Positions 1-60,341 of a stretch of 64,000 nt of DNA are shown here, piece after piece. Under the pieces are notes generated by a model. The model searched no databases and was not told where the DNA came from. It saw only the letters and a list, made by a program, of their open reading frames with translations. Each line of letters opens with the position of its first letter. The stretch's first letter is position 1. Where the stretch lies: the sequence record MW822011, one strand, 5' to 3'. Source of the stretch: Shigella phage TB004. A program made the translations under genes and the position numbers.

Positions 1-317
1 CACCTACGTTTTTGTATTTTTGTATAGATGCTTGATAAGCAGCTTCTTGCGAAGTAATCCATCCATAATACGGATCATAATTATCGTTACACATCAATAA
101 AACCCAATACAACTGCGGATTTCCATATATAGCATTTGCTAATTCTTCCGGTCGTGGTGAACCTTTAATATAATAAGTACGTAAGCGGTATCCCGCAAGA
201 GCACGTTTGAAATAGTCTTTATAGTTTCTAAAAATATCTGTCATAGGAATAGTCGGCGCGTTTTTATTCACCGTTTTGGCCGCATATTCAATCGGATCAA
301 AAAATGTAAAGAGCATG
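1..317 (-). CDS. 53: baseplate wedge protein gp53, N-terminal portion (gene continues past window start)
   Basis: minus-strand ATG at 315-317 with GGAGG upstream; frame open to window edge; divergent from gene 4 as in T-even phages. Confidence 0.7.
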
Positions 318-330
318 GGCCCTCCTGTTT

Positions 331-338
331 ATAAATAT
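331..338 (+). promoter_or_regulatory. T4-type late promoter TATAAATA for gene 4
   Basis: exact TATAAATA about 25 nt upstream of ATG 364. Confidence 0.6.
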
Positions 339-345
339 ATTATCT

Positions 346-353
346 ATTTATAA
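346..353 (-). promoter_or_regulatory. T4-type late promoter TATAAATA (minus strand) for gene 53
   Basis: reverse complement of 346-353 is TATAAATA, about 29 nt upstream of minus-strand ATG. Confidence 0.55.
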
Positions 354-363
354 GGAGAATCCA

Positions 364-816
364 ATGGCATATTCTGGAAAATGGGTTCCTAAAAATATAT
401 CAAAATATAGAGGTGACCCTAAAAAAATTATGTATAGATCAAATTGGGAAAAATTCTTTTTTGAATGGTTAGATAAAAATCCAGAAATTATTGCATGGGG
501 TAGTGAAACAGCAGTAATTCCTTATTTTTGTAATGCAGAAGGGAAAAAACGTAGATACTTCATGGATATTTGGATGAAAGATTCTTCTGGGCAAGAATTT
601 TTTATTGAAATAAAACCTAAAAAAGAAACACAACCACCAGTTAAACCGGCACATCTAACAACCGCAGCGAAGAAAAGATTTATGAATGAAATTTATACAT
701 ATTCCGTTAATACTGATAAATGGAAAGCAGCGCAAGCTTTAGCTGAAAAGCGTGGAATAAAATTTAGAATTCTAACAGAAGATGGATTAAGAGCTCTTGG
801 CTTTAAGGGGGCATAA
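364..816 (+). CDS. 4: head completion protein gp4
   Basis: 150-aa ORF; size and position match T-even gene 4; late promoter upstream. Confidence 0.7.
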
Positions 817-1640
817 TGGCTATTTTTCAAATAATTAATGAAAGCACTCCCCAAGTTCCAAAGGTTAAGCAATCATTAAACGAAAAGAAATGGATTCAGA
901 TAGGTCTTGAATACAAAAAGGCCAAAGCAAAAGGAATGACAGGAAAGCAATTTGCTGAAGAAAGAGGAATCAAATATTCTACGTTTACTTCGGCAATGTC
1001 AAAATATGCTTCAGGAATTAAAACTGCTGAAAAGATTCAAAAGCTTGAATCAAAACCAATGAATAAACTCAATAAGCAAGAAAGACAACTGCTTATGATA
1101 AATTCATTCAGGCAAACGTTGCGTGATAAAATTCGTAATGAAGGTGCAGCAATTAATAATAAAACCAGAAAGTGGTTTGCTGAAACTATTAAGCAGGTAA
1201 AAGGACATAAAGTTGTTCGCCCGCAGCCGGGACGAATATATGCTTTTGCTTATGATGCTAAACACAAAGAAACTCTTCCTTATTGGGATAAATTTCCTTT
1301 GATAATTTACCTCGGTTTAGGTAAACATAATTTAATGTATGGATTGAACTTGCACTATATTCCACCTAAAGCTCGTCAACAGTTTCTAGAAGAGCTTTTA
1401 AAGCAATATTCAAATACACCTACTATTACTAATAAAACAAAATTAAAAATTGATTGGAGTCAAGTGAAAGGATTTAGGGGTGCAGACCAAATGATTAAGG
1501 CATATATACCCGGTAATATTATGGGTAGCCTTGTTGAAATCGCCCCGAAAGACTGGGCGAACGTTGTGTTAATGCCACTTCAGCAGTTCGTTTCAAAAGG
1601 AAAACGTTTCTCTGCAAACAAAGTCTGGTCAAATATCTAA
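816..1640 (+). CDS. 2: DNA end protector protein gp2
   Basis: 274-aa ORF, start overlaps gp4 stop; size and order match T4 gene 2. Confidence 0.7.
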
Positions 1641-1746
1641 TTCTATTATCTTCCATTCTTTTCTATTGTTTGTTCTAATTGGAATTGAATGGAAGGGACT
1701 TAGACCCATTATACCACCAACATTTATAAAGCATTATGAGGAATAT

Positions 1747-2277
1747 ATGTCGCAAGCACTGCAACAAATTTTTAACCAAGCAAATACAACTAACTTTGTA
1801 GTATCAATACCGCATAGTAATACTACATCTGCTTTTACTTTAAATGCTCAGTCAGTTCCTATTCCAGGAATTAGAATACCTGTTACTGATACCGTGACTG
1901 GGCCGTTTGGACTAGGCCGAGCACAGCGTCCAGGAGTTACATTTGAGTACGATCCACTCATCGTGAGATTTATAGTTGATGAAGAGCTTAAGTCGTGGAT
2001 AGGAATGTATGAATGGATGCTAGGAACTAGTAACTATCTTACAGGCGAAAATACTGCCCAAAAAACAGGTCCTGAATACATTACTCTTTACATTTTAGAT
2101 AATAGTAAAACTGAAATCGTGATGTCAATAAACTTTTATAAGCCTTGGGTTTCTGACCTGTCTGAAGTAGAATTTAGCTACACGGAAGATTCAGACCCAG
2201 CCTTAGTATGCACAGCAACGATTCCTTATACGTATTTTCAAGTAGAAAAAGATGGTAAAATTATAGCAGAAGTTTAA
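1747..2277 (+). CDS. 3: tail completion / sheath stabilizer protein gp3
   Basis: 176-aa product from ATG 1747 (GAGGA 5 nt upstream); ORF is open from 1666. Confidence 0.65.
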   Translation: MSQALQQIFNQANTTNFVVSIPHSNTTSAFTLNAQSVPIPGIRIPVTDTVTGPFGLGRAQRPGVTFEYDPLIVRFIVDEELKSWIGMYEWMLGTSNYLTGENTAQKTGPEYITLYILDNSKTEIVMSINFYKPWVSDLSEVEFSYTEDSDPALVCTATIPYTYFQVEKDGKIIAEV

Positions 2278-2326
2278 TGCTTAAGTTTCATGTGTTATAA
2301 TCTTAACTAAATTTGAGGAGAAACAT

Positions 2327-3039
2327 ATGAAACTAATCTTTTTAAGTGGTGTAAAGCGTAGTGGAAAAGATACTACTGCAGATTTTATCATGAATAATTA
2401 TTCTGCAGTTAAATATCAACTTGCTGGTCCTATTAAAGATGCATTGGCTTATGCATGGGGTGTATTTGCAGCAAACACTGACTATCCTTGTTTAACTCGT
2501 AAAGAGTTTGAAGGAATTGACTATGATCGTGAAACTAATTTAAATCTGACTAAATTAGAAGTAATTACGATTATGGAACAAGCATTTTGCTATCTTAATA
2601 GTAAAAGCCCAATTAAAGGTGTGTTTGTTTTTGATGACGCAGTTAATTTCGTAGCATTTAACAAGATTGCTGACGTTATAAATAATATTGAAGATCAATG
2701 GTCAGTCCGTCGTCTGATGCAAGCCCTAGGTACGGATTTGATTGTTAATAACTTCGACCGCATGTATTGGGTAAAATTATTTGCTTTAGATTATCTTGAT
2801 AAATTTAACTCAGGTTATGATTATTATATCGTTCCTGATACTCGTCAAGATCATGAAATGGATGCGGCTAGGGCGATGGGTGCTACAGTAATTCATGTAG
2901 TTCGTCCTGGTCAAAAATCCAATGATACTCATATTACAGAAGCTGGATTGCCAATTCGTGATGGCGATTTAGTAATTACAAACGATGGTTCTCTTGAAGA
3001 ACTTTTTTCTAAAATTAAAAATACACTAAAGGTACTATA

Positions 3040-3040
<1 letters not shown>
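2327..3040 (+). CDS. 1: deoxynucleoside monophosphate kinase gp1
   Basis: 237 aa, P-loop GVKRSGKDT; N-terminus matches recalled T4 gp1. Confidence 0.85.
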
Positions 3041-3737
<697 letters not shown>

Positions 3738-3740
3738 TTT

Positions 3741-3781
3741 CACAAAGTTATTTACACGGGGTTTTAGTTGTGATACTATTA
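3741..3781 (+). promoter_or_regulatory. early promoter upstream of ipI
   Basis: TTTACA -35-like element and GATACTAT -10 region shared with other early promoters in window. Confidence 0.45.
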
Positions 3782-3815
3782 CCCTATCAAAACAAATGAG
3801 TGATTGGAGAATAAA

Positions 3816-4088
3816 ATGAAAACATTTAAAGAATTTATCAATGAAGCTACTTTTAACGAAAAAGTAAAAATTAGTAAAGCTGTCAAGACTTTGATTGCTG
3901 ACATCAATTACCTATATGATATTGATTTAACTGACTATGTAACAGTTGGTAACAAACGTAACTTTTTCGTGTTTGACATCTCTGAACTTGACCAGAATCA
4001 AATTAACAACATTGAGCGTTTTGCTAATGATAAGGGTCTTCGTCATGAGTCAGCGGGTTATAAAAAATACGCAATTTATTTAAAATGA
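3816..4088 (+). CDS. ipI: internal protein I (capsid-targeted, IPI-like)
   Basis: N-terminal capsid targeting sequence MKTFKEFINE; locus after 57B. Confidence 0.7.
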   Translation: MKTFKEFINEATFNEKVKISKAVKTLIADINYLYDIDLTDYVTVGNKRNFFVFDISELDQNQINNIERFANDKGLRHESAGYKKYAIYLK

Positions 4089-4119
4089 GTTTACTTTTAA
4101 ATAGGGTTGTGGTACTATT
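4089..4119 (+). promoter_or_regulatory. early promoter
   Basis: GTTTAC -35 and GGTACTAT -10. Confidence 0.45.
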
Positions 4120-4148
4120 ATCTCATCAAAATTAATTAGGAAAATAAA

Positions 4149-4457
4149 ATGAAAACATTTAAAGAATTTATCAATGAAGCGGCTGCGCCAAAGACATTCG
4201 TTATTAATACTCAGGCGAGTCTTGATGATGAATACGCGGAGGCAATTCTGAAGTCACTTGCTAAGAACGGTGTTGAAGTAATTGCTTCGGACTTTAAGAA
4301 AGGGGCTTCCGAGATGTTTATTTCTATAACTAAAGGATCTAAAGCTAAGATTAAATCATCATTCGGAGTTGCTCGTACCGATCAAATCGACAATCATGAC
4401 TTTAAACAAACTGGTGCTAAACGGCAGAATACAATTGCATCACGCGGAATAAAATAG
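4149..4457 (+). CDS. second capsid-targeted internal-protein-like ORF
   Basis: 102 aa starting MKTFKEFINEA (CTS); own promoter. Confidence 0.6.
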   Translation: MKTFKEFINEAAAPKTFVINTQASLDDEYAEAILKSLAKNGVEVIASDFKKGASEMFISITKGSKAKIKSSFGVARTDQIDNHDFKQTGAKRQNTIASRGIK

Positions 4458-4469
4458 TTTATAAAAACA

Positions 4470-4499
4470 GTTTACTTTTAGATAGGGTAGTGATACTAT
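4470..4499 (+). promoter_or_regulatory. early promoter
   Basis: GTTTAC -35, GATACTAT -10. Confidence 0.45.
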
Positions 4500-4527
4500 T
4501 ACCCTATCAACTACAGAGGAGAATAAA

Positions 4528-4713
4528 ATGAAACGTTGTGAATTAATTCGAAATGTTGCTATTGCAATTTCTGCTTCCGCTTTTAGTTTTTCAATGTTTG
4601 TTGGATTTATATGCGGATTATTAACTACAGCAGAAAATGTGTTTTCACTTGTAGTAGCATTTTTAATTGGTTTAATTGCTATCGTTATGGATAAAATTTC
4701 TAAAGGTGAATAG
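4528..4713 (+). CDS. small hydrophobic membrane protein
   Basis: 61-aa ORF with GGAG RBS, mostly hydrophobic. Confidence 0.45.
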   Translation: MKRCELIRNVAIAISASAFSFSMFVGFICGLLTTAENVFSLVVAFLIGLIAIVMDKISKGE

Positions 4714-4714
4714 A

Positions 4715-5095
4715 ATGTATAAAGTGTATGCGGATTATCAGGCTAATCCATCTGAAAAGCCAGGTTGTCAAATTGGATGGGCTCATGATACTTTGCTTGA
4801 AGCAGTAGATGCTGCTCAAAAATTGGGATATAAATATGTAGAGATTGTTCAACCGTCAGGAAAAGTTATTACTCTTGAAGAGTTCAATAACATTAAACCA
4901 AACTTTTTACTTTTTGCAGGTGATAATTATTATCCTCGTGGTGGATATGCTGATTTAATCGCGAAAGCCGCCACTGAAGATGAACTCCGTGATATTATCA
5001 AAGAAAATGAAAACAAACTGATGTATGGTTCTAATCGCTTTGATTGGTGGCAAATTGTAAATGCCCATACTCATACTATTGTTGATGAAGGCTGA
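4715..5095 (+). CDS. hypothetical protein
   Basis: 126-aa ORF from ATG 4715 with GGTGA RBS. Confidence 0.5.
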   Translation: MYKVYADYQANPSEKPGCQIGWAHDTLLEAVDAAQKLGYKYVEIVQPSGKVITLEEFNNIKPNFLLFAGDNYYPRGGYADLIAKAATEDELRDIIKENENKLMYGSNRFDWWQIVNAHTHTIVDEG

Positions 5096-5097
5096 TA

Positions 5098-5385
5098 ATG
5101 ATTCTTTATGCGAAAGTATCGTCCGTTGAAAATGGATATAAATATGATCAAGATGCGGCTAAAGCCTTGATTGATGATTATGGCATTTTAACATGTTTTG
5201 AAGTTGAAAAGGTTTACATTGACCGTTCATCTTCTCAAGTTAAATTAGTAAAGGAAGACCGTAAATTTAATACAGTAAATTTTGATTTCTTTATTGAAAC
5301 AGAAAAAGGTCCTCTTGAATATGATATTTTCAAGAATCCTTTGGGTCTTGAATGCATCGTAAATATGTATTATCATAAATGGTAA
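5098..5385 (+). CDS. hypothetical protein
   Basis: 95-aa ORF immediately after previous gene. Confidence 0.45.
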   Translation: MILYAKVSSVENGYKYDQDAAKALIDDYGILTCFEVEKVYIDRSSSQVKLVKEDRKFNTVNFDFFIETEKGPLEYDIFKNPLGLECIVNMYYHKW

Positions 5386-5482
5386 ATATGCTTTAAGAAA
5401 TATTTGTTATTATTAACTCATATCGCACTGATTAATACCCTCTATCATCAAGGGTTCTTGCTTGAGAGCCTTTGTTAATAAT

Positions 5483-5555
5483 TGGGAATTAGCCAAGTTG
5501 GTAAGGCACTGGATTTTGATTCCAGGATGCAAAGGTTCGAGTCCTTTATTCCCAG
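5483..5555 (+). tRNA. tRNA-Gln (anticodon UUG)
   Basis: cloverleaf; acceptor tgggaat/attccca; anticodon loop ttTTGat; GGTTCGAGTCC T-arm. Confidence 0.8.
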
Positions 5556-5556
5556 C

Positions 5557-5643
5557 GCGAGAATGGTCAAATTGGTAAAGGCACAGCACTTAAAATGCTG
5601 CGGAATGATTTCCTTGTGGGTTCGAGTCCCACTTCTCGCACCA
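5557..5643 (+). tRNA. tRNA-Leu (anticodon UAA)
   Basis: type II tRNA with long variable arm; loop cTTAAaa; ends CCA. Confidence 0.8.
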
Positions 5644-5648
5644 AATTT

Positions 5649-5722
<74 letters not shown>

Positions 5723-5732
5723 ATTTAATTTA

Positions 5733-5806
5733 CTCCGTGTAGCTCAGTTTGGTAGAGCGTCTGCTTTGGGAGCAGAATGTCGCAGGTTCAAATCCTGCCG
5801 CGGAGA
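5733..5806 (+). tRNA. tRNA-Pro (anticodon UGG)
   Basis: acceptor ctccgtg/cgcggag; loop ttTGGga. Confidence 0.8.
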
Positions 5807-5808
5807 CT

Positions 5809-5898
5809 GGAGGCGTGGCAGAGTGGTTTAATGCACCGGTCTTGAAAACCGGCAGTCGCTCCGGCGACTCATAGGTTCAAATCCTATCGCCTCCGCCA
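5809..5898 (+). tRNA. tRNA-Ser (anticodon UGA)
   Basis: type II tRNA; acceptor ggaggcg/cgcctcc; loop ctTGAaa; CCA encoded. Confidence 0.8.
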
Positions 5899-5903
5899 GT
5901 TTT

Positions 5904-5976
5904 GCTGATTTAGCTCAGTAGGTAGAGCAACTCACTTGTAATGAGAAGGTCGGCGGTTCGATTCCGTCAATCAGCA
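5904..5976 (+). tRNA. tRNA-Thr (anticodon UGU)
   Basis: acceptor gctgatt/aatcagc; loop ctTGTaa; CCA encoded. Confidence 0.8.
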
Positions 5977-5977
5977 C

Positions 5978-6055
5978 CAAGGCCCTGTAGCTGGAAGGTT
6001 CAAGCAAGCGACTCATAATCGCCAGATGGTGGTTCAATTCCACCCAGGGCCACCA
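5978..6055 (+). tRNA. tRNA with CAU anticodon (Ile, lysidine type, or Met)
   Basis: acceptor ggccctg/cagggcc; loop ctCATaa; CCA encoded. Confidence 0.7.
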
Positions 6056-6457: not shown

Positions 6458-7012
6458 ATGAGAAGTGATGTAGACTGGGACCAAATTAATTTGGCTATAA
6501 AAGCTGGATTAATATACCGTGGTAATTTTGAAATAACACAAGAACTAATTGAAAATGTTGCTTTTCTTAAAATAACAGACAAGAAAAAATTCTTTTCTAT
6601 GACTAAAGCCAAACGCTTGTCAATATGGAAAGTATTTTGTAGGACTGCCGCCCTAAATCTTTTGAAATTTAAAGATGAATTTGATATAGAAAAAAGCTAT
6701 CGGCAAGCTTTCGTATACATAATGGTAGATACTACAAATCCTAATTATTATAAAATAGGAAGAAGTATAGAACCCGATGTTAGAGTTATAACAGCAAATA
6801 CATTTTCACCGTTTAAAAGTTTTAAAATAGTATCATTTAGATATTCCCAGGATGCAGTAGAACTTGAAAAATATATGCACAGCATTTATAATCAGGACCA
6901 TATAAATGGCGAATGGTTTTTCTTTCATGACATAAGTTCCATAGTTAAAAAATTAGATACTAAATCTACACAATTTGAAATACCAAATGAGAAGCCGGGT
7001 CGCTACCGGTAA
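6458..7012 (+). CDS. T5orf172 (GIY-YIG-like) domain protein
   Basis: 184 aa; C-terminal motif FVYIMVD...YYKIGRS...ELEKYMH...GEWF typical of T5orf172 domain. Confidence 0.55.
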   Translation: MRSDVDWDQINLAIKAGLIYRGNFEITQELIENVAFLKITDKKKFFSMTKAKRLSIWKVFCRTAALNLLKFKDEFDIEKSYRQAFVYIMVDTTNPNYYKIGRSIEPDVRVITANTFSPFKSFKIVSFRYSQDAVELEKYMHSIYNQDHINGEWFFFHDISSIVKKLDTKSTQFEIPNEKPGRYR

Positions 7013-7292
7013 GTCGTCGGACTGATGTTCCCTGCGTAAGGACTGGTCTTAATAAATCTTTACGATTTGTTAATATCCCCTTACATCACAGCAGAAACGG
7101 CGCACCGAATTATCGATTCGAGGAAATATCTTTGCCGTAAGCCGAGTAGCGTTTTTGACGGAACGTTCGGATATGGTCGAGATATGGCCTTTTAAAAATA
7201 TTGAGTAGCGTCAACTACTTAATAACCGGGTTCGAATCCCGGCGTTTCGTACAAACACTTGCCTTAGCAGGTGGAACCCCGACAAGGTATAT
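7013..7292 (+). ncRNA. non-coding, GC-richer structured segment (possible small stable RNA region)
   Basis: no ORF; tRNA-like T-arm CCGGGTTCGAATCCCGG; repeated GAGTAGCGT; ends at terminator. Confidence 0.3.
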
Positions 7293-7322
7293 AGCCCCTT
7301 CCGAAAGGTTGGGGCTTTTTTG
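7293..7322 (+). terminator. rho-independent terminator
   Basis: hairpin AGCCCC-TTCCGAAAGGTT-GGGGCT followed by T6. Confidence 0.65.
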
Positions 7323-7330
7323 TATAAATA
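7323..7330 (+). promoter_or_regulatory. late promoter TATAAATA
   Basis: exact TATAAATA 35 nt upstream of ATG 7366. Confidence 0.5.
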
Positions 7331-7365
7331 TAGTAAACAATAAACCTACTTTCTAAGGACCATCA

Positions 7366-7746
7366 ATGTATACTTTTAATGAATTTTTAGCCGAAACGGA
7401 AGTAATCACCGAAGCCGGCGTACGTATGACAAAAGAGAAATGGCAAGCTGCTTACGATGCTATTTCTGGTACAAAAACTAGTACAGAGTTTTTCAAAAAC
7501 GTTCAAGCCATGTACGGTATCGACACTTCTAGCCAAAAAGAATATTACAGAGCTTCTAAAGCATTCAAAGATATTGTTAGTGGTGGTGTTTCTGCTAAAT
7601 CGGGTTCGCCTAAAGTAAAACCTGCTCCTACCATTCCTAAACCTGCGACCCCTAAAGCAAAACCTGAGCCTAAGCCGGAAGTAAAAGCACCTCCTAAAGC
7701 TCCTGCTCTTAAGTTTGATACTTCTAGCCTGGAAAAAAAAATATAA
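7366..7746 (+). CDS. hypothetical protein, N-terminal frame ending in Pro/Lys/Ala-rich linker
   Basis: 126-aa ORF; stop lies just after an A9 run at 7733-7741. Confidence 0.5.
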   Translation: MYTFNEFLAETEVITEAGVRMTKEKWQAAYDAISGTKTSTEFFKNVQAMYGIDTSSQKEYYRASKAFKDIVSGGVSAKSGSPKVKPAPTIPKPATPKAKPEPKPEVKAPPKAPALKFDTSSLEKKI

Positions 7747-7987
7747 ACAACTATCTTCGCTTGTTCGTGATATTGAATCCGATACATCTTCACTCGTTCG
7801 TGAATTCAATAGTCTTCGCAATGGCCAACATATCAACAACCTTGATACCCCAGACCTTTATCGTCTTTATTTGACTATCGAAGGTTTGAAGTATACTCAA
7901 CCACTTCACGATGCGATTAAAGAAAAACTTCGTCAGGCAGGTCGTTTGGCTGCTGACGCTGCTCAGTATGCAAAAACCCGTAAATAA
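7742..7987 (+). other. downstream frame without any ATG; probable continuation of 7366 ORF via frameshift in A9 run
   Basis: 82 codons open in +1 frame, no ATG in the whole frame, begins inside the A-run. Confidence 0.45.
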
Positions 7988-8004
7988 TTAAGTTACAATC
8001 ACTT

Positions 8005-8030
8005 AAGCCCCTTCCTATGGTTGGGGCTTT
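8005..8030 (+). terminator. terminator-like hairpin
   Basis: AAGCCCC-TTCCTATGGTT-GGGGCTT hairpin, weak T tract. Confidence 0.4.
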
Positions 8031-8063
8031 CGGGCATCTAGGGCAGATAAATTTTTCACAAAG

Positions 8064-8092
8064 TTGTTTACTTCTCCTTGAGGTATGATACT
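8064..8092 (+). promoter_or_regulatory. early promoter
   Basis: GTTTAC, 17-nt spacer, TACTAT; upstream A/T-rich TTTCACAAAG element. Confidence 0.5.
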
Positions 8093-8124
8093 ATAGACCT
8101 ATCAAAACAAATGAGGAAAACATT

Positions 8125-8628
8125 ATGAGTCTTTATACTGAACTGAATAAAAAATCTGAAGAATCGCGTGACGTTGTTTTTAAAAATGTACAAAAGCGTA
8201 TTTTGGAAAAGATGTATGATGCTGCATCTAAAGGTGAAAAATCATGCCGCTTTCCGATGAGATGTTCTACAGATTTATGCTCAAATACTATTGAATGGTT
8301 AGAAAGCGAAGGTCTTACTGTAGAGAAAAACCCGGCGACTTCTATTGACGGTGAATCATATATTAGTATTTCTTGGGATAAACCACAGGTTAATGAGAAA
8401 GACGGTGATTGGGTTGTGGATGTTAAGACTTCTGATGGTGGACGTTCTGTTGAAGTTTCAGCCGTAGTTAAAGGTACACATGGGCAAAATAGCTGGGGAT
8501 GTGGTGGTGAAGAAAAAGAAATTGTTCTTAGTGTGATTGCAAGGTCCACTAGCAATAAAATTGCCCAGAGCATCATCTATGCTGCGTGCATTGAAGCTGG
8601 AAAAATTTGCAAAATTAAAAATAAATGA
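8125..8628 (+). CDS. hypothetical protein
   Basis: 167-aa ORF with GAGGA RBS. Confidence 0.55.
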   Translation: MSLYTELNKKSEESRDVVFKNVQKRILEKMYDAASKGEKSCRFPMRCSTDLCSNTIEWLESEGLTVEKNPATSIDGESYISISWDKPQVNEKDGDWVVDVKTSDGGRSVEVSAVVKGTHGQNSWGCGGEEKEIVLSVIARSTSNKIAQSIIYAACIEAGKICKIKNK

Positions 8629-13152: not shown

Positions 13153-13455
13153 ATGAAAACATATCAAGAATTTATTACTGAAGCGCGAGTGAGTGCAGGT
13201 AAATTAGAAGCCGCTATAAATAAAAAGGCCCATTCATTTCACGATTTGTCCGATAAAGACCGTAAGAAACTTGTAAGCCTTTATATTGACAAAGAGCGTA
13301 TTCTCGCTCTTCCTGGCGCTAATGAAGGTAAACAGGCCAAGCCTTTGAATGCTGTCGAAAAGAAAATTGATAACTTTGCTTCTAAATTCGGTATGTCTAT
13401 GGATGACCTTCAGCAAGCGGCTATCGAAGCAGCTAAAGTAATTAAAGGTAAATAA
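13153..13455 (+). CDS. ipII: internal protein II
   Basis: 100 aa with CTS MKTYQEFITE; matches recalled T4 IPII. Confidence 0.8.
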   Translation: MKTYQEFITEARVSAGKLEAAINKKAHSFHDLSDKDRKKLVSLYIDKERILALPGANEGKQAKPLNAVEKKIDNFASKFGMSMDDLQQAAIEAAKVIKGK

Positions 13456-13512: not shown

Positions 13513-13877
13513 ATGACTCGTATTAATTTGACTTTAGTATCTGAACTTGCTGATCAACATTTAATCGCGGAATACCATGAATTGCCGCGTGTTTTTGATA
13601 TAATTCGTAAACACGCGGCAAATGGAAAAATGATTATAATCCATGCAAATCAGCTATTAAGTTGAGTCAACAACGACTCGATGAAAAAATTTTAATGAAG
13701 CCGCATTGGTATAAGTATTACGGCAAAAATATTTACATTCAAATAACATGGGAACAAGCTGGACCTCATGATTCTGTGAGGGATTCCCGCCAACCTGTAA
13801 TAAGGTCGAGCCCAAGTGCGGTAATGGGTAAATACAGAAATGGACAATTCATGCGCCACGGAATGGCCCAAATTTAG
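13513..13877 (+). pseudogene. denV: denV (endonuclease V) remnant with internal out-of-frame deletion
   Basis: N-terminal 39 aa match T4 EndoV, then frame breaks; C-terminal ...SQQRLDEKI..WYKYYGK.IY in another frame. Confidence 0.6.
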
Positions 13878-60176: not shown

Positions 60177-60341
60177 ATGAAAACATATAAAGAATTTATT
60201 AAAGAAGATATGGTCGCTGGAGATTCAGGTGGTAATCCTGAAAATATCTCCACTGGAACAACGTCAGGCGCTGTAGTAAATAAAGGTCCTGAACAGATTC
60301 CTAAAAAGAAAAAAGAGGAATCTAAAGAAAAAGAAGAGTAA
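60177..60341 (+). CDS. small capsid-targeted peptide (CTS-bearing)
   Basis: 54 aa starting MKTYKEFIKE, same CTS as internal proteins; GAGG RBS; Lys/Glu-rich tail. Confidence 0.45.
   Translation: MKTYKEFIKEDMVAGDSGGNPENISTGTTSGAVVNKGPEQIPKKKKEESKEKEE

Follow-up and report, generated by a model that had tools for sequence, protein, structure and literature searches.

A single gene interrupted at a nine-adenine tract

The window considered here is a stretch of 64,000 nucleotides from Shigella phage TB004 (record MW822011). Within it, the plus-strand region 7366–7987 is one gene with a normal product of about 206 aa, broken in this record at a run of nine adenines (A9, positions 7733–7741). The 5′ part of the gene (7366–7746, +) encodes a protein of 126 aa that ends with …SSLEKKI at a stop codon located at 7744–7746; in frame 0, positions 7729–7746 read …CTG GAA AAA AAA ATA TAA. 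This part comprises a capsid-targeting-like N-terminus, a helical N domain and a linker, and extends four residues past the domain boundary before the premature TAA. The 3′ part (7742–7987, +) lies in the +1 frame and encodes a conserved three-helix C-terminal domain (YKQLSSLV…AKTRK), with the true stop codon at 7985–7987. The +1 frame is open from position 7715 to this TAA and contains neither ATG nor GTG, and few TTG or ATT codons. When one A was deleted in silico, an ORF of 621 nt encoding 206 aa was obtained. Relatives of the gene are in frame with eight adenines (A8) at this place, reading GAA AAA AAA T (E-K-K-Y). A Shine-Dalgarno-like AAGGA (7355–7359, +) is found 6 nt ahead of the ATG, and a ribosome-binding site is annotated at the equivalent place in phage 55. 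The original prediction, made from the sequence of this locus, described an ORF ending just past the A-run after a Pro/Lys/Ala-rich tail, followed by a +1 frame open to 7987 without ATG. Re-reading of the sequence agrees with all the described elements, and the statement that A8 would fuse the frames is confirmed both by the one-A deletion and by the A8 present in nearly all relatives.

The protein can be divided into four parts, as predicted from its sequence and an AlphaFold2 model: a 10-residue capsid-targeting-like propeptide, a helical domain, a disordered linker and a three-helix C-terminal domain. The model was made on P0001, which is 98% identical to the window protein. It predicts a small helical N domain at residues 20–72 (pLDDT about 85), a disordered segment at residues 74–112 (pLDDT 32–41) and the three-helix domain at residues 122–206 (pLDDT about 85–89). 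In this model the C-terminal domain opens with a helix whose initial turn corresponds to the codons of the A-run (E-K-K-Y). The Pro/Lys/Ala-rich linker is encoded by positions 7588–7710 (+), approximately residues 75–115. It has an internal period of 42 nt, and alleles differ in it by a 6-nt indel. A faint similarity of the linker with the TonB spacer is purely compositional. The whole protein is basic (pI 9.5–9.8) with 34 lysine and arginine residues.

The gene is flanked, in a cassette-like manner, by two near-identical GGGG/CCCC stem-loops at 7293–7316 and 8006–8028. The upstream element (7293–7321, +) consists of an AGCCCC..GGGGCT stem with a GAAA loop, followed by T6. It is likely a terminator, the same element being annotated as putative terminator in phage G53, and it likely isolates the gene from upstream transcription; it was not called by a simple terminator scan. 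The downstream stem-loop (8006–8028, +) is its direct-repeat partner. A match with TATAAATA, the T4 late-promoter consensus, is located at 7323–7330 (+), 36 nt upstream of the ATG. Its intergenic position lends it plausibility, but it is a consensus match only, as the window contains 11 such matches versus 11.6 expected by chance.

The backbone of the window is Tequatrovirus-like, 96–98% identical to JE01, with the gene order gp4, gp2, gp3, 1, 57, internal-protein genes, a 10-tRNA cluster, e, tk, nrdC, 55, 47/46 and 45/44. From 6976 to at least 8350, the sequence is instead about 97% identical to the Mosigvirus G53. The alignment with phage 55 extends to 10596, with just 87.5% overall identity. 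Positions 7326–8110 have no counterpart in JE01. It has been proposed that ORFans are shuffled in T4-type phages by stem-loop cassettes of the PeSL type (Arbiol et al. 2010, PMC2839356). The present locus resembles them in that the gene lies between near-identical stem-loops, has its own promoter-like element and sits in a Mosigvirus-like patch within a Tequatrovirus-like backbone; recombination at the hairpins is putative. Unlike in PeSL cassettes, the promoter-like element corresponds to a late consensus (TATAAATA) and not to an early sigma-70 promoter.

Conservation of the gene and length of the tract in relatives

The fused 206-aa protein matches PHROG 2280, a family of unknown function, with an E-value of 1.1e-58 over residues 1–201 and over the entire profile (1–178 of 178). 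The gene occurs in 71 phage records, nearly all of them Mosigvirus, with 95–99% nucleotide identity, and is annotated in the records checked as a single ORF of 206–208 aa. More broadly, one ORF of 202–208 aa is found in Mosigvirus, Dhakavirus, Winklervirus and further genera. With tblastn, an uninterrupted single ORF was seen in 130 of 140 records, which include Dhakavirus (about 65% amino-acid identity), Winklervirus and phages of Kosakonia, Yersinia, Klebsiella and Enterobacter. The full-length match with PHROG 2280 and the single ORF of the relatives confirm that both ORFs belong to a single two-domain gene, each representing one half of it, as had been proposed. The locus should thus be annotated as one gene, frameshifted or needing a homopolymer re-check, and not as two hypothetical ORFs.

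In an alignment of 13 sequences, the junction between the two halves is continuous (…FDTSSL(E/V)KKY(K/N)QL…), with K-K-Y invariant, and the C-terminal half is the best-conserved region of the protein. In the downstream half, compared among 16 distinct DNA alleles, 18 codons vary only synonymously versus 2 with amino-acid changes. This half is under purifying selection in the family to which the A9 alleles belong. Such near-purely synonymous variation indicates a coding sequence that is translated and selected in the population at large. No match to the protein was found in Pfam, NCBIfam or the PDB sequences, and Foldseek searches against PDB and BFVD gave no significant fold match outside its own family. 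Among the non-significant hits were helical-hairpin look-alikes of the WXG100/EsxA type (E > 2). A literature search found no paper on the PHROG 2280 gene or on Mosigvirus homopolymers. No match to the tract was present in E. coli complete genomes, and a scan of genome contigs was likewise empty.

The length of the A-run was compared across related phages, as had been suggested: A8 is the norm, A9 and A7 are rare, and other genera have A6 or AAAAAG. The Mosigvirus allele reads GAA AAA AAA TAT (E-K-K-Y), which is A8 and in frame. JS98 and CLB_P2 have GTT AAA AAA TAT (A6), and CBH8 has GTT AAA AAG TAT, both reading V-K-K-Y. From these alleles, the long run is a lineage-specific by-product of codon choice whose in-frame length is eight. 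Among the matches listed, about 68 of the 71 phage records have the A8 length, which was directly read at 20 loci, and the off-length records are PNJ-6 (A9), CEV1 and ECCR664 (both A7). The CEV1 product, P0022, runs into the −1 frame. The simple repeat in this coding region thus switches the frame by its length, A8 being in frame and A9 or A7 out of frame. Close relatives are polymorphic for A7, A8 and A9, some of these variants being possibly sequencing errors.

A9 alleles are found in the window, PNJ-6, a Logan contig (SRR23581750), an ENA metagenome scaffold and an IMG/VR contig. Each of them gives a full-length protein once set to A8, and the downstream frame is open in all. For four of the five, the nearest or tied-nearest neighbour is an A8 allele; the exception is the Logan contig, which most resembles the partial ENA A9 scaffold. 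All ten contigs with an identical downstream neighbour gene have A8, about six of them from outside the phage collection, and the metagenome contig OBCQ01000004 also has A8. PNJ-6, in which the gene is annotated as a truncated 128-aa ORF, can be compared with the A8 phage PNJ-9: there are no substitutions over about 760 nt of the gene region, and over 40 kb at 99.7% identity there are two indels, of which the A-run is the sole coding one. Truncated products are also on record in protein form. P0020 is a 126-aa product on 9 contigs, which are possibly not independent samples, and P0021 is another. P0031 is a 90-aa call of the downstream ORF on a 169-kb IMG contig. P0019 and P0035 are PGAP ‘partial’ proteins, from contigs of about 170 kb, that end with …DTSSL directly before the tract. 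The window’s own 126-aa product was not found elsewhere in public assemblies, nor was a genome nearly identical to that of the window, with either A8 or A9, the best match being 99.3% over 2 kb. Judged from these sequence comparisons, the frame has been broken recently and repeatedly, and at the tract alone.

Long homopolymers are otherwise scarce in these genomes. The 64-kb window contains 247 A5, 52 A6 and 2 A7 runs, together with 117 T5, 22 T6 and 1 T7, and the A9 tract is its sole homopolymer of at least 8. Compared with an analytic first-order Markov model for the 64 kb, A/T runs of at least 7 number 4 versus about 69 expected, and runs of at least 8 number 1 versus about 26. The same sharp cut-off at run length 6–7 is seen in JE01 (Tequatrovirus, 49 kb) and in PNJ-6 and PNJ-9 (48 kb each); in the two PNJ phages the tract is again the sole run of at least 8. 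The A9 tract is therefore an extreme outlier in a run-depleted genome, and its outlier length makes it a prime candidate for replication slippage and for base-calling error alike.

A putative capsid targeting sequence and a candidate internal head protein

The first ten codons of the gene (7366–7395, +) encode MYTFNEFLAE, which matches the targeting sequence of T4 internal proteins and includes a cleavage motif of the gp21 type (L-x-E). A second motif, I-T-E, is found at residues 14–16 (MYTFNEFLAE|TEVITE|A). The corresponding N-terminus in JS98 is MKTYNEFLNE|S. In the phage T4 protein IPIII, the first 10 residues constitute the capsid targeting sequence, in which targeting depends on residues 4 and 7 and cleavage by the gp21 prohead protease on residues 8 and 10 (PMC9026906). 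Here positions 4, 7, 8 and 10 are F, F, L and E. The window encodes other proteins with such N-termini: ORF 13153–13455 starts with MKTYQEFITE and belongs to PHROG 7857 (‘internal virion protein’), and ORFs 3816–4088 and 4149–4457 start with MKTFKEFINE and belong to PHROGs 7673 and 2667 (‘internal head protein’). By a back-of-envelope estimate, about 4e-4 six-frame matches to the strict motif M-x-T-[YF]-x-E-F-[IL]-x-E would be expected by chance.

Given this capsid targeting match, we propose that the PHROG 2280 protein is probably an unrecognised internal head protein, a candidate for being packaged and injected with the DNA. The likeness with T4 IPI, IPII and IPIII (Mullaney & Black 1996, via PMC9026906 and PMC3012670) includes the decapeptide with its aromatic residue at position 4, Phe-7, Leu/Ile-8 and Glu-10, the basic and lysine-rich composition and, as a consensus match only, a late-promoter motif upstream. 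Like the T4 internal-protein genes, the gene is dispensable and variably present, and it lies in a plastic region that adjoins other internal-protein genes. In contrast, it encodes a protein twice the size of IPI, IPII and IPIII, with a linker and two helical domains, and the likeness ends at the propeptide. No homology of the mature part with these three proteins was detected in Pfam, NCBIfam, PDB sequence or fold searches. [quoted passage not shown] The targeting sequence gives a testable role, that of a packaged and injected protein, to a family labelled ‘hypothetical’ in well above 100 T4-like genomes. Since the truncated A9 product would keep the targeting signal, it could still be packaged.

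Origin and possible consequences of the ninth adenine

The original prediction proposed either a single two-domain protein made by a +1 shift at the A-run, or a length error or variable tract. Of the first proposal, the single protein was retained, as relatives have one ORF, while the shift was not, as homologues are in frame and there is no stimulatory RNA fold. The second proved to be the right class of explanation, with A8 in nearly all relatives. For the two frames to be the normal state, the full protein would have to arise by programmed recoding, i.e. +1 ribosomal frameshifting or transcriptional slippage on A9, with a set ratio of short to long products. We consider this very unlikely, even if several features would suit it. 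AAA-AAA-A would let tRNA-Lys re-pair perfectly at +1, before a rare AUA codon and a stop codon, and the short product is a well-defined domain plus linker. Nine adenines is also the length where slippage of bacterial RNA polymerase becomes appreciable, runs of nine As or Ts marking the point from which many bacterial genomes counter-select slippage-prone tracts (PMC1088944). Yet the arrangement is not conserved, the homologues being in frame with A8, A6 or AAAAAG, and the A9 alleles are scattered among A8 alleles without forming a lineage. The A6 or AAAAAG of more distant genera indicates that, as a recoding signal, the tract lacks conservation. The 119 nt downstream of it have no greater folding propensity than shuffled sequences (z = −0.19), and no upstream Shine-Dalgarno-like stimulator of a +1 shift is present at the tract. 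In addition, slippage of E. coli RNA polymerase on poly(A) is reported to be weak, with no deletion seen in runs of up to A8 (PMC6260861). Recoding, whether a programmed +1 shift or transcriptional, was rejected because relatives are in frame and neither structure nor stimulator was found. As a recoding candidate the locus is ordinary, and it should not carry a programmed-frameshift annotation. Less probable still is that there are two separate genes, the downstream frame being translated independently from its own start. The TTG at 7715 does open a 90-aa ORF that gene callers annotate in A9 contigs. However, no Shine-Dalgarno sequence precedes 7715, the 90-aa ORF starts with 9 codons (LILLAWKKK) that overlap the upstream frame and are without any match, and all A8 genomes have here the uninterrupted C-terminal half of a single protein. 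An independent start of the downstream ORF, which the original prediction had named as evidence against it, was searched and rejected, with no ATG or GTG in frame and no usable Shine-Dalgarno sequence.

We lean towards the reading that A9 is a genuine and recent allele with one added A, produced by replication slippage and representing an OFF state of the contingency-locus type. Slipped-strand mispairing (Streisinger slippage) of the phage DNA polymerase at the longest homopolymer of the region would have extended A8 to A9. The resulting allele would be recent and probably reversible, OFF or truncated, and the A9 DNA would direct mainly the 126-aa protein, with targeting signal, N domain and linker but without the C-terminal domain. 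A distinctly less probable, though serious, alternative is that the phage truly has A8 and an intact gene, the extra A being a homopolymer miscall in the consensus, hence a sequencing or assembly artefact. A8 is the state of almost all relatives, and no homopolymer in the window is longer than the tract, which makes it the likeliest site for a miscall even in an otherwise clean assembly. A9 instead of A8 is a typical error of long-read and pyrosequencing platforms and of some polishing steps. Off-length calls are scattered singly and include low-quality or older records: ECCR664 (A7) has further indels in the same gene and looks poorly assembled, the CEV1 (A7) record is a 20-kb fragment and the PNJ-6 record is a ‘partial genome’. 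The proteins P0019 and P0035, ending directly before the tract, may point to assembler trouble there. The downstream frame, devoid of any decay, fits a non-event as well as a recent event. On the other side, comparison of the window with JE01 over 49 kb found no other homopolymer-type split gene despite roughly 300 A5–A6 runs; the one further interrupted gene, a denV-type ORF, has lost about 187 nt between short repeats through a genuine deletion. PNJ-6 is just as clean across 40 kb. A9 also occurs in three independent metagenome or read-archive contigs with differing sequence backgrounds, and P0020 adds one truncated product on 9 contigs that may not be independent samples.

If A9 is a genuine slippage allele, full-length protein could still be made from it when RNA polymerase drops one A (or adds two), or when tRNA-Lys slips +1 before AUA-UAA. 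Such a rescue would yield only a small full-length fraction. As slippage of E. coli RNA polymerase on poly(A) is weak, any rescue is probably small and may be negligible; a little could come about by chance, through slippage of RNA polymerase or of the ribosome on A9. As in Thermus thermophilus dnaX (A9), the 9A/8A sites of IS elements and disrupted E. coli ORFs (Baranov et al. 2005, PMC1088944), the A9 tract joins overlapping frames, and transcripts one A shorter would encode the full protein. Citrobacter tssM (PMC4256274) is a further comparison system of frameshift rescue by transcriptional slippage. Unlike at the dnaX and IS-element sites, the two-frame arrangement is not conserved among homologues here, and rescue needs a one-A deletion or a two-A insertion, for which the E. 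coli polymerase is poor (PMC6260861).

As a special case of the slippage allele, the A8 tract could be maintained because reversible switching, ON/OFF or full/truncated, is advantageous. The benefit could for example be the escape from a host defence that senses the injected protein, or a trade-off against the defence that is blocked. We regard this as unlikely. A8 persists in genomes nearly purged of runs of at least 7, and variants with one A more or less both recur in nature in unrelated backgrounds. By a rough count, out-of-frame alleles represent about 1/10 of public contigs, far above the per-site mutant frequencies of 3e-4 to 7e-4 reported for T2 repeats, an estimate that is inflated by possible miscalls and by resampling of the same phages. 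The T-even internal proteins are dispensable, host-specific counter-defence factors (PMC3012670), and contingency loci have been demonstrated in T2 and T4. Nevertheless, the tract is merely E-K-K in preferred codons and is absent from the Dhakavirus and Winklervirus homologues. Its conservation in Mosigvirus (95–99% identity) is uninformative, since about 0.5 changes are expected at its three synonymous sites. Slightly less probable again is the more detailed proposal that A8 is a maintained switch on an unrecognised injected internal head protein, cassette-moved from Mosigvirus into a T4-like backbone, in which slippage would toggle between full-length and truncated-packaged protein (or none). 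The accompanying idea that populations would keep both states, as the C-terminal domain blocks one host defence or is sensed by another, is equally doubtful.

The closest parallels are T2 agt and T4 rIIA, in which frameshift switching occurs at mononucleotide repeats, an A-run at gene bases 288–296 in the former and A6 in the latter (Gomez, Barrick & Waters, bioRxiv 10.1101/2025.10.21.683753). Changes of ±1 in these repeats revert 1e3 to 1e4 times faster than point mutants, and reads reveal T2 repeat mutants at frequencies of about 3e-4 to 7e-4 per site (bioRxiv 10.1101/2025.10.21.683753). These runs are the classical Streisinger frameshift hot spots of T4. Like them, the tract described here is a coding poly(A) run in a dispensable gene of a T4-like phage, ±1 variants switch its frame and recur independently, and the mechanism would be DNA polymerase slippage. 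In contrast, rates were measured in T2 and T4 whereas sequence records are compared here, the PHROG 2280 gene and its tract are not among the described contingency loci, and the OFF state is here the consensus and not a minority of reads. A tract found as A7, A8 and A9, the single long run in genomes that purge such runs, constitutes a natural case for the proposed idea of phage contingency loci. Homopolymer variation of the Streisinger or contingency type is already known, and the PHROG 2280 tract would be a further case in T4-like phages.

The mosaic patch and its repeats

The gene split by the A9 tract (window 7366-7987, PHROG 2280) lies in a mosaic patch, window 6976 to about 8900, that shares about 97% identity with Mosigvirus phages, as compared with G53 over 7000-8350. 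Both flanks of this patch, window 1-6052 and 11418 onward, are 96-98% identical to the Tequatrovirus JE01, in which any counterpart of window 7326-8110 is missing. As judged from the sequence, the gene was apparently imported together with the Mosigvirus-like patch. It is bracketed by a pair of near-identical stem-loops (AGCCCCTTCC..GGTTGGGGCT) at 7293-7316 and 8006-8028, which form direct repeats on either side and resemble the cassettes of stem-loops proposed for modular shuffling in T4-type phages. Within the gene, the linker-coding region contains direct repeats with a 42-nt period (PK.KP.P units, window 7595-7712). A 6-nt indel here, either AGCAGT or AGCAAT, makes the linker two residues longer in some alleles than in others, and linker length is thus itself polymorphic.

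Homopolymer lengths and database variation

The A9 tract (7733-7741) is the only run of at least eight nucleotides in the whole window, which contains 52 A6 runs, 22 T6 runs and three runs of seven. A first-order Markov model predicts about 69 runs of at least seven and about 26 of at least eight. The same sharp cut-off in homopolymer length is found in JE01 and in PNJ-6 and PNJ-9, which carry the A9 and A8 alleles of the tract, respectively. That long homopolymers are so far below the Markov expectation suggests strong counter-selection against slippage-prone runs in T4-like genomes.

In some database records, the homolog of this gene is split or shortened elsewhere than at the A-run. The homolog of Salmonella phage SHP1 (KY979109; L006, 601-1217) is frameshifted around codons 47-69, that of SSE1 has a 1-nt insertion near its start, and that of ECCR664, an A7 allele, contains additional indels. 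Sequence quality is therefore a possible source of variation and may lie behind at least some of the differences recorded for this gene. Two NCBI proteins annotated as partial, EJG6624994.1 (P0019) and EPO1808574.1 (P0035), end with FDTSSL, immediately 5' of the codons of the A-run. Their source contigs, about 170 kb long, belong to Shigella and E. coli assemblies and seem to stop at the tract. Such ends would be consistent with length heterogeneity among the reads, or with difficulties of the assembler, at this position.

tRNAs and the tRNA-like region

One of the 10 clustered tRNAs, at window 5981-6055, is called as tRNA-Met (CAT). The AUA-reading tRNA-Ile of T4 likewise carries a CAU anticodon, and the called tRNA-Met may thus be a tRNA-Ile. 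If so, this would matter for how slow decoding is at the AUA codon directly after the A-run. In the Mosigvirus phage 55, a 94-nt stretch (L001, 2860-2953) is annotated as tRNA-Lys. The homologous stretch, approximately window 7160-7255 within 7013-7290, has a T-arm-like GGGTTCGAATCCCGG at its end, and neither ARAGORN nor Rfam called a tRNA in this region. The stretch may encode either a small RNA resembling a tRNA or a tRNA that has decayed.

Other ORFs in the window

A 184-aa ORF (6458-7012, + strand), with the tRNA cluster on one side and the tRNA-like region on the other, contains a T5orf172/MUG113 domain (Pfam E 4e-9). This domain is GIY-YIG-related, and the ORF is therefore likely a gene of the homing-endonuclease type. 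Mosigvirus relatives have a different ORF, of 114 aa, at the corresponding position. The denV (endonuclease V) homolog at 13513-13877 is also broken: about 187 nt, approximately residues 41-98, are absent compared with JE01. The missing segment lies between short AAATGG..AA repeats, and its loss alters the frame; what remains are two ORFs, of 50 and 71 aa. This looks like a genuine deletion rather than a homopolymer problem. Finally, a 54-aa ORF of PHROG 1823, function unknown (60177-60341, + strand), starts with MKTYKEFIKE, which again matches the capsid targeting sequence. This ORF is not part of the known internal-protein clusters and may encode an additional small packaged protein.
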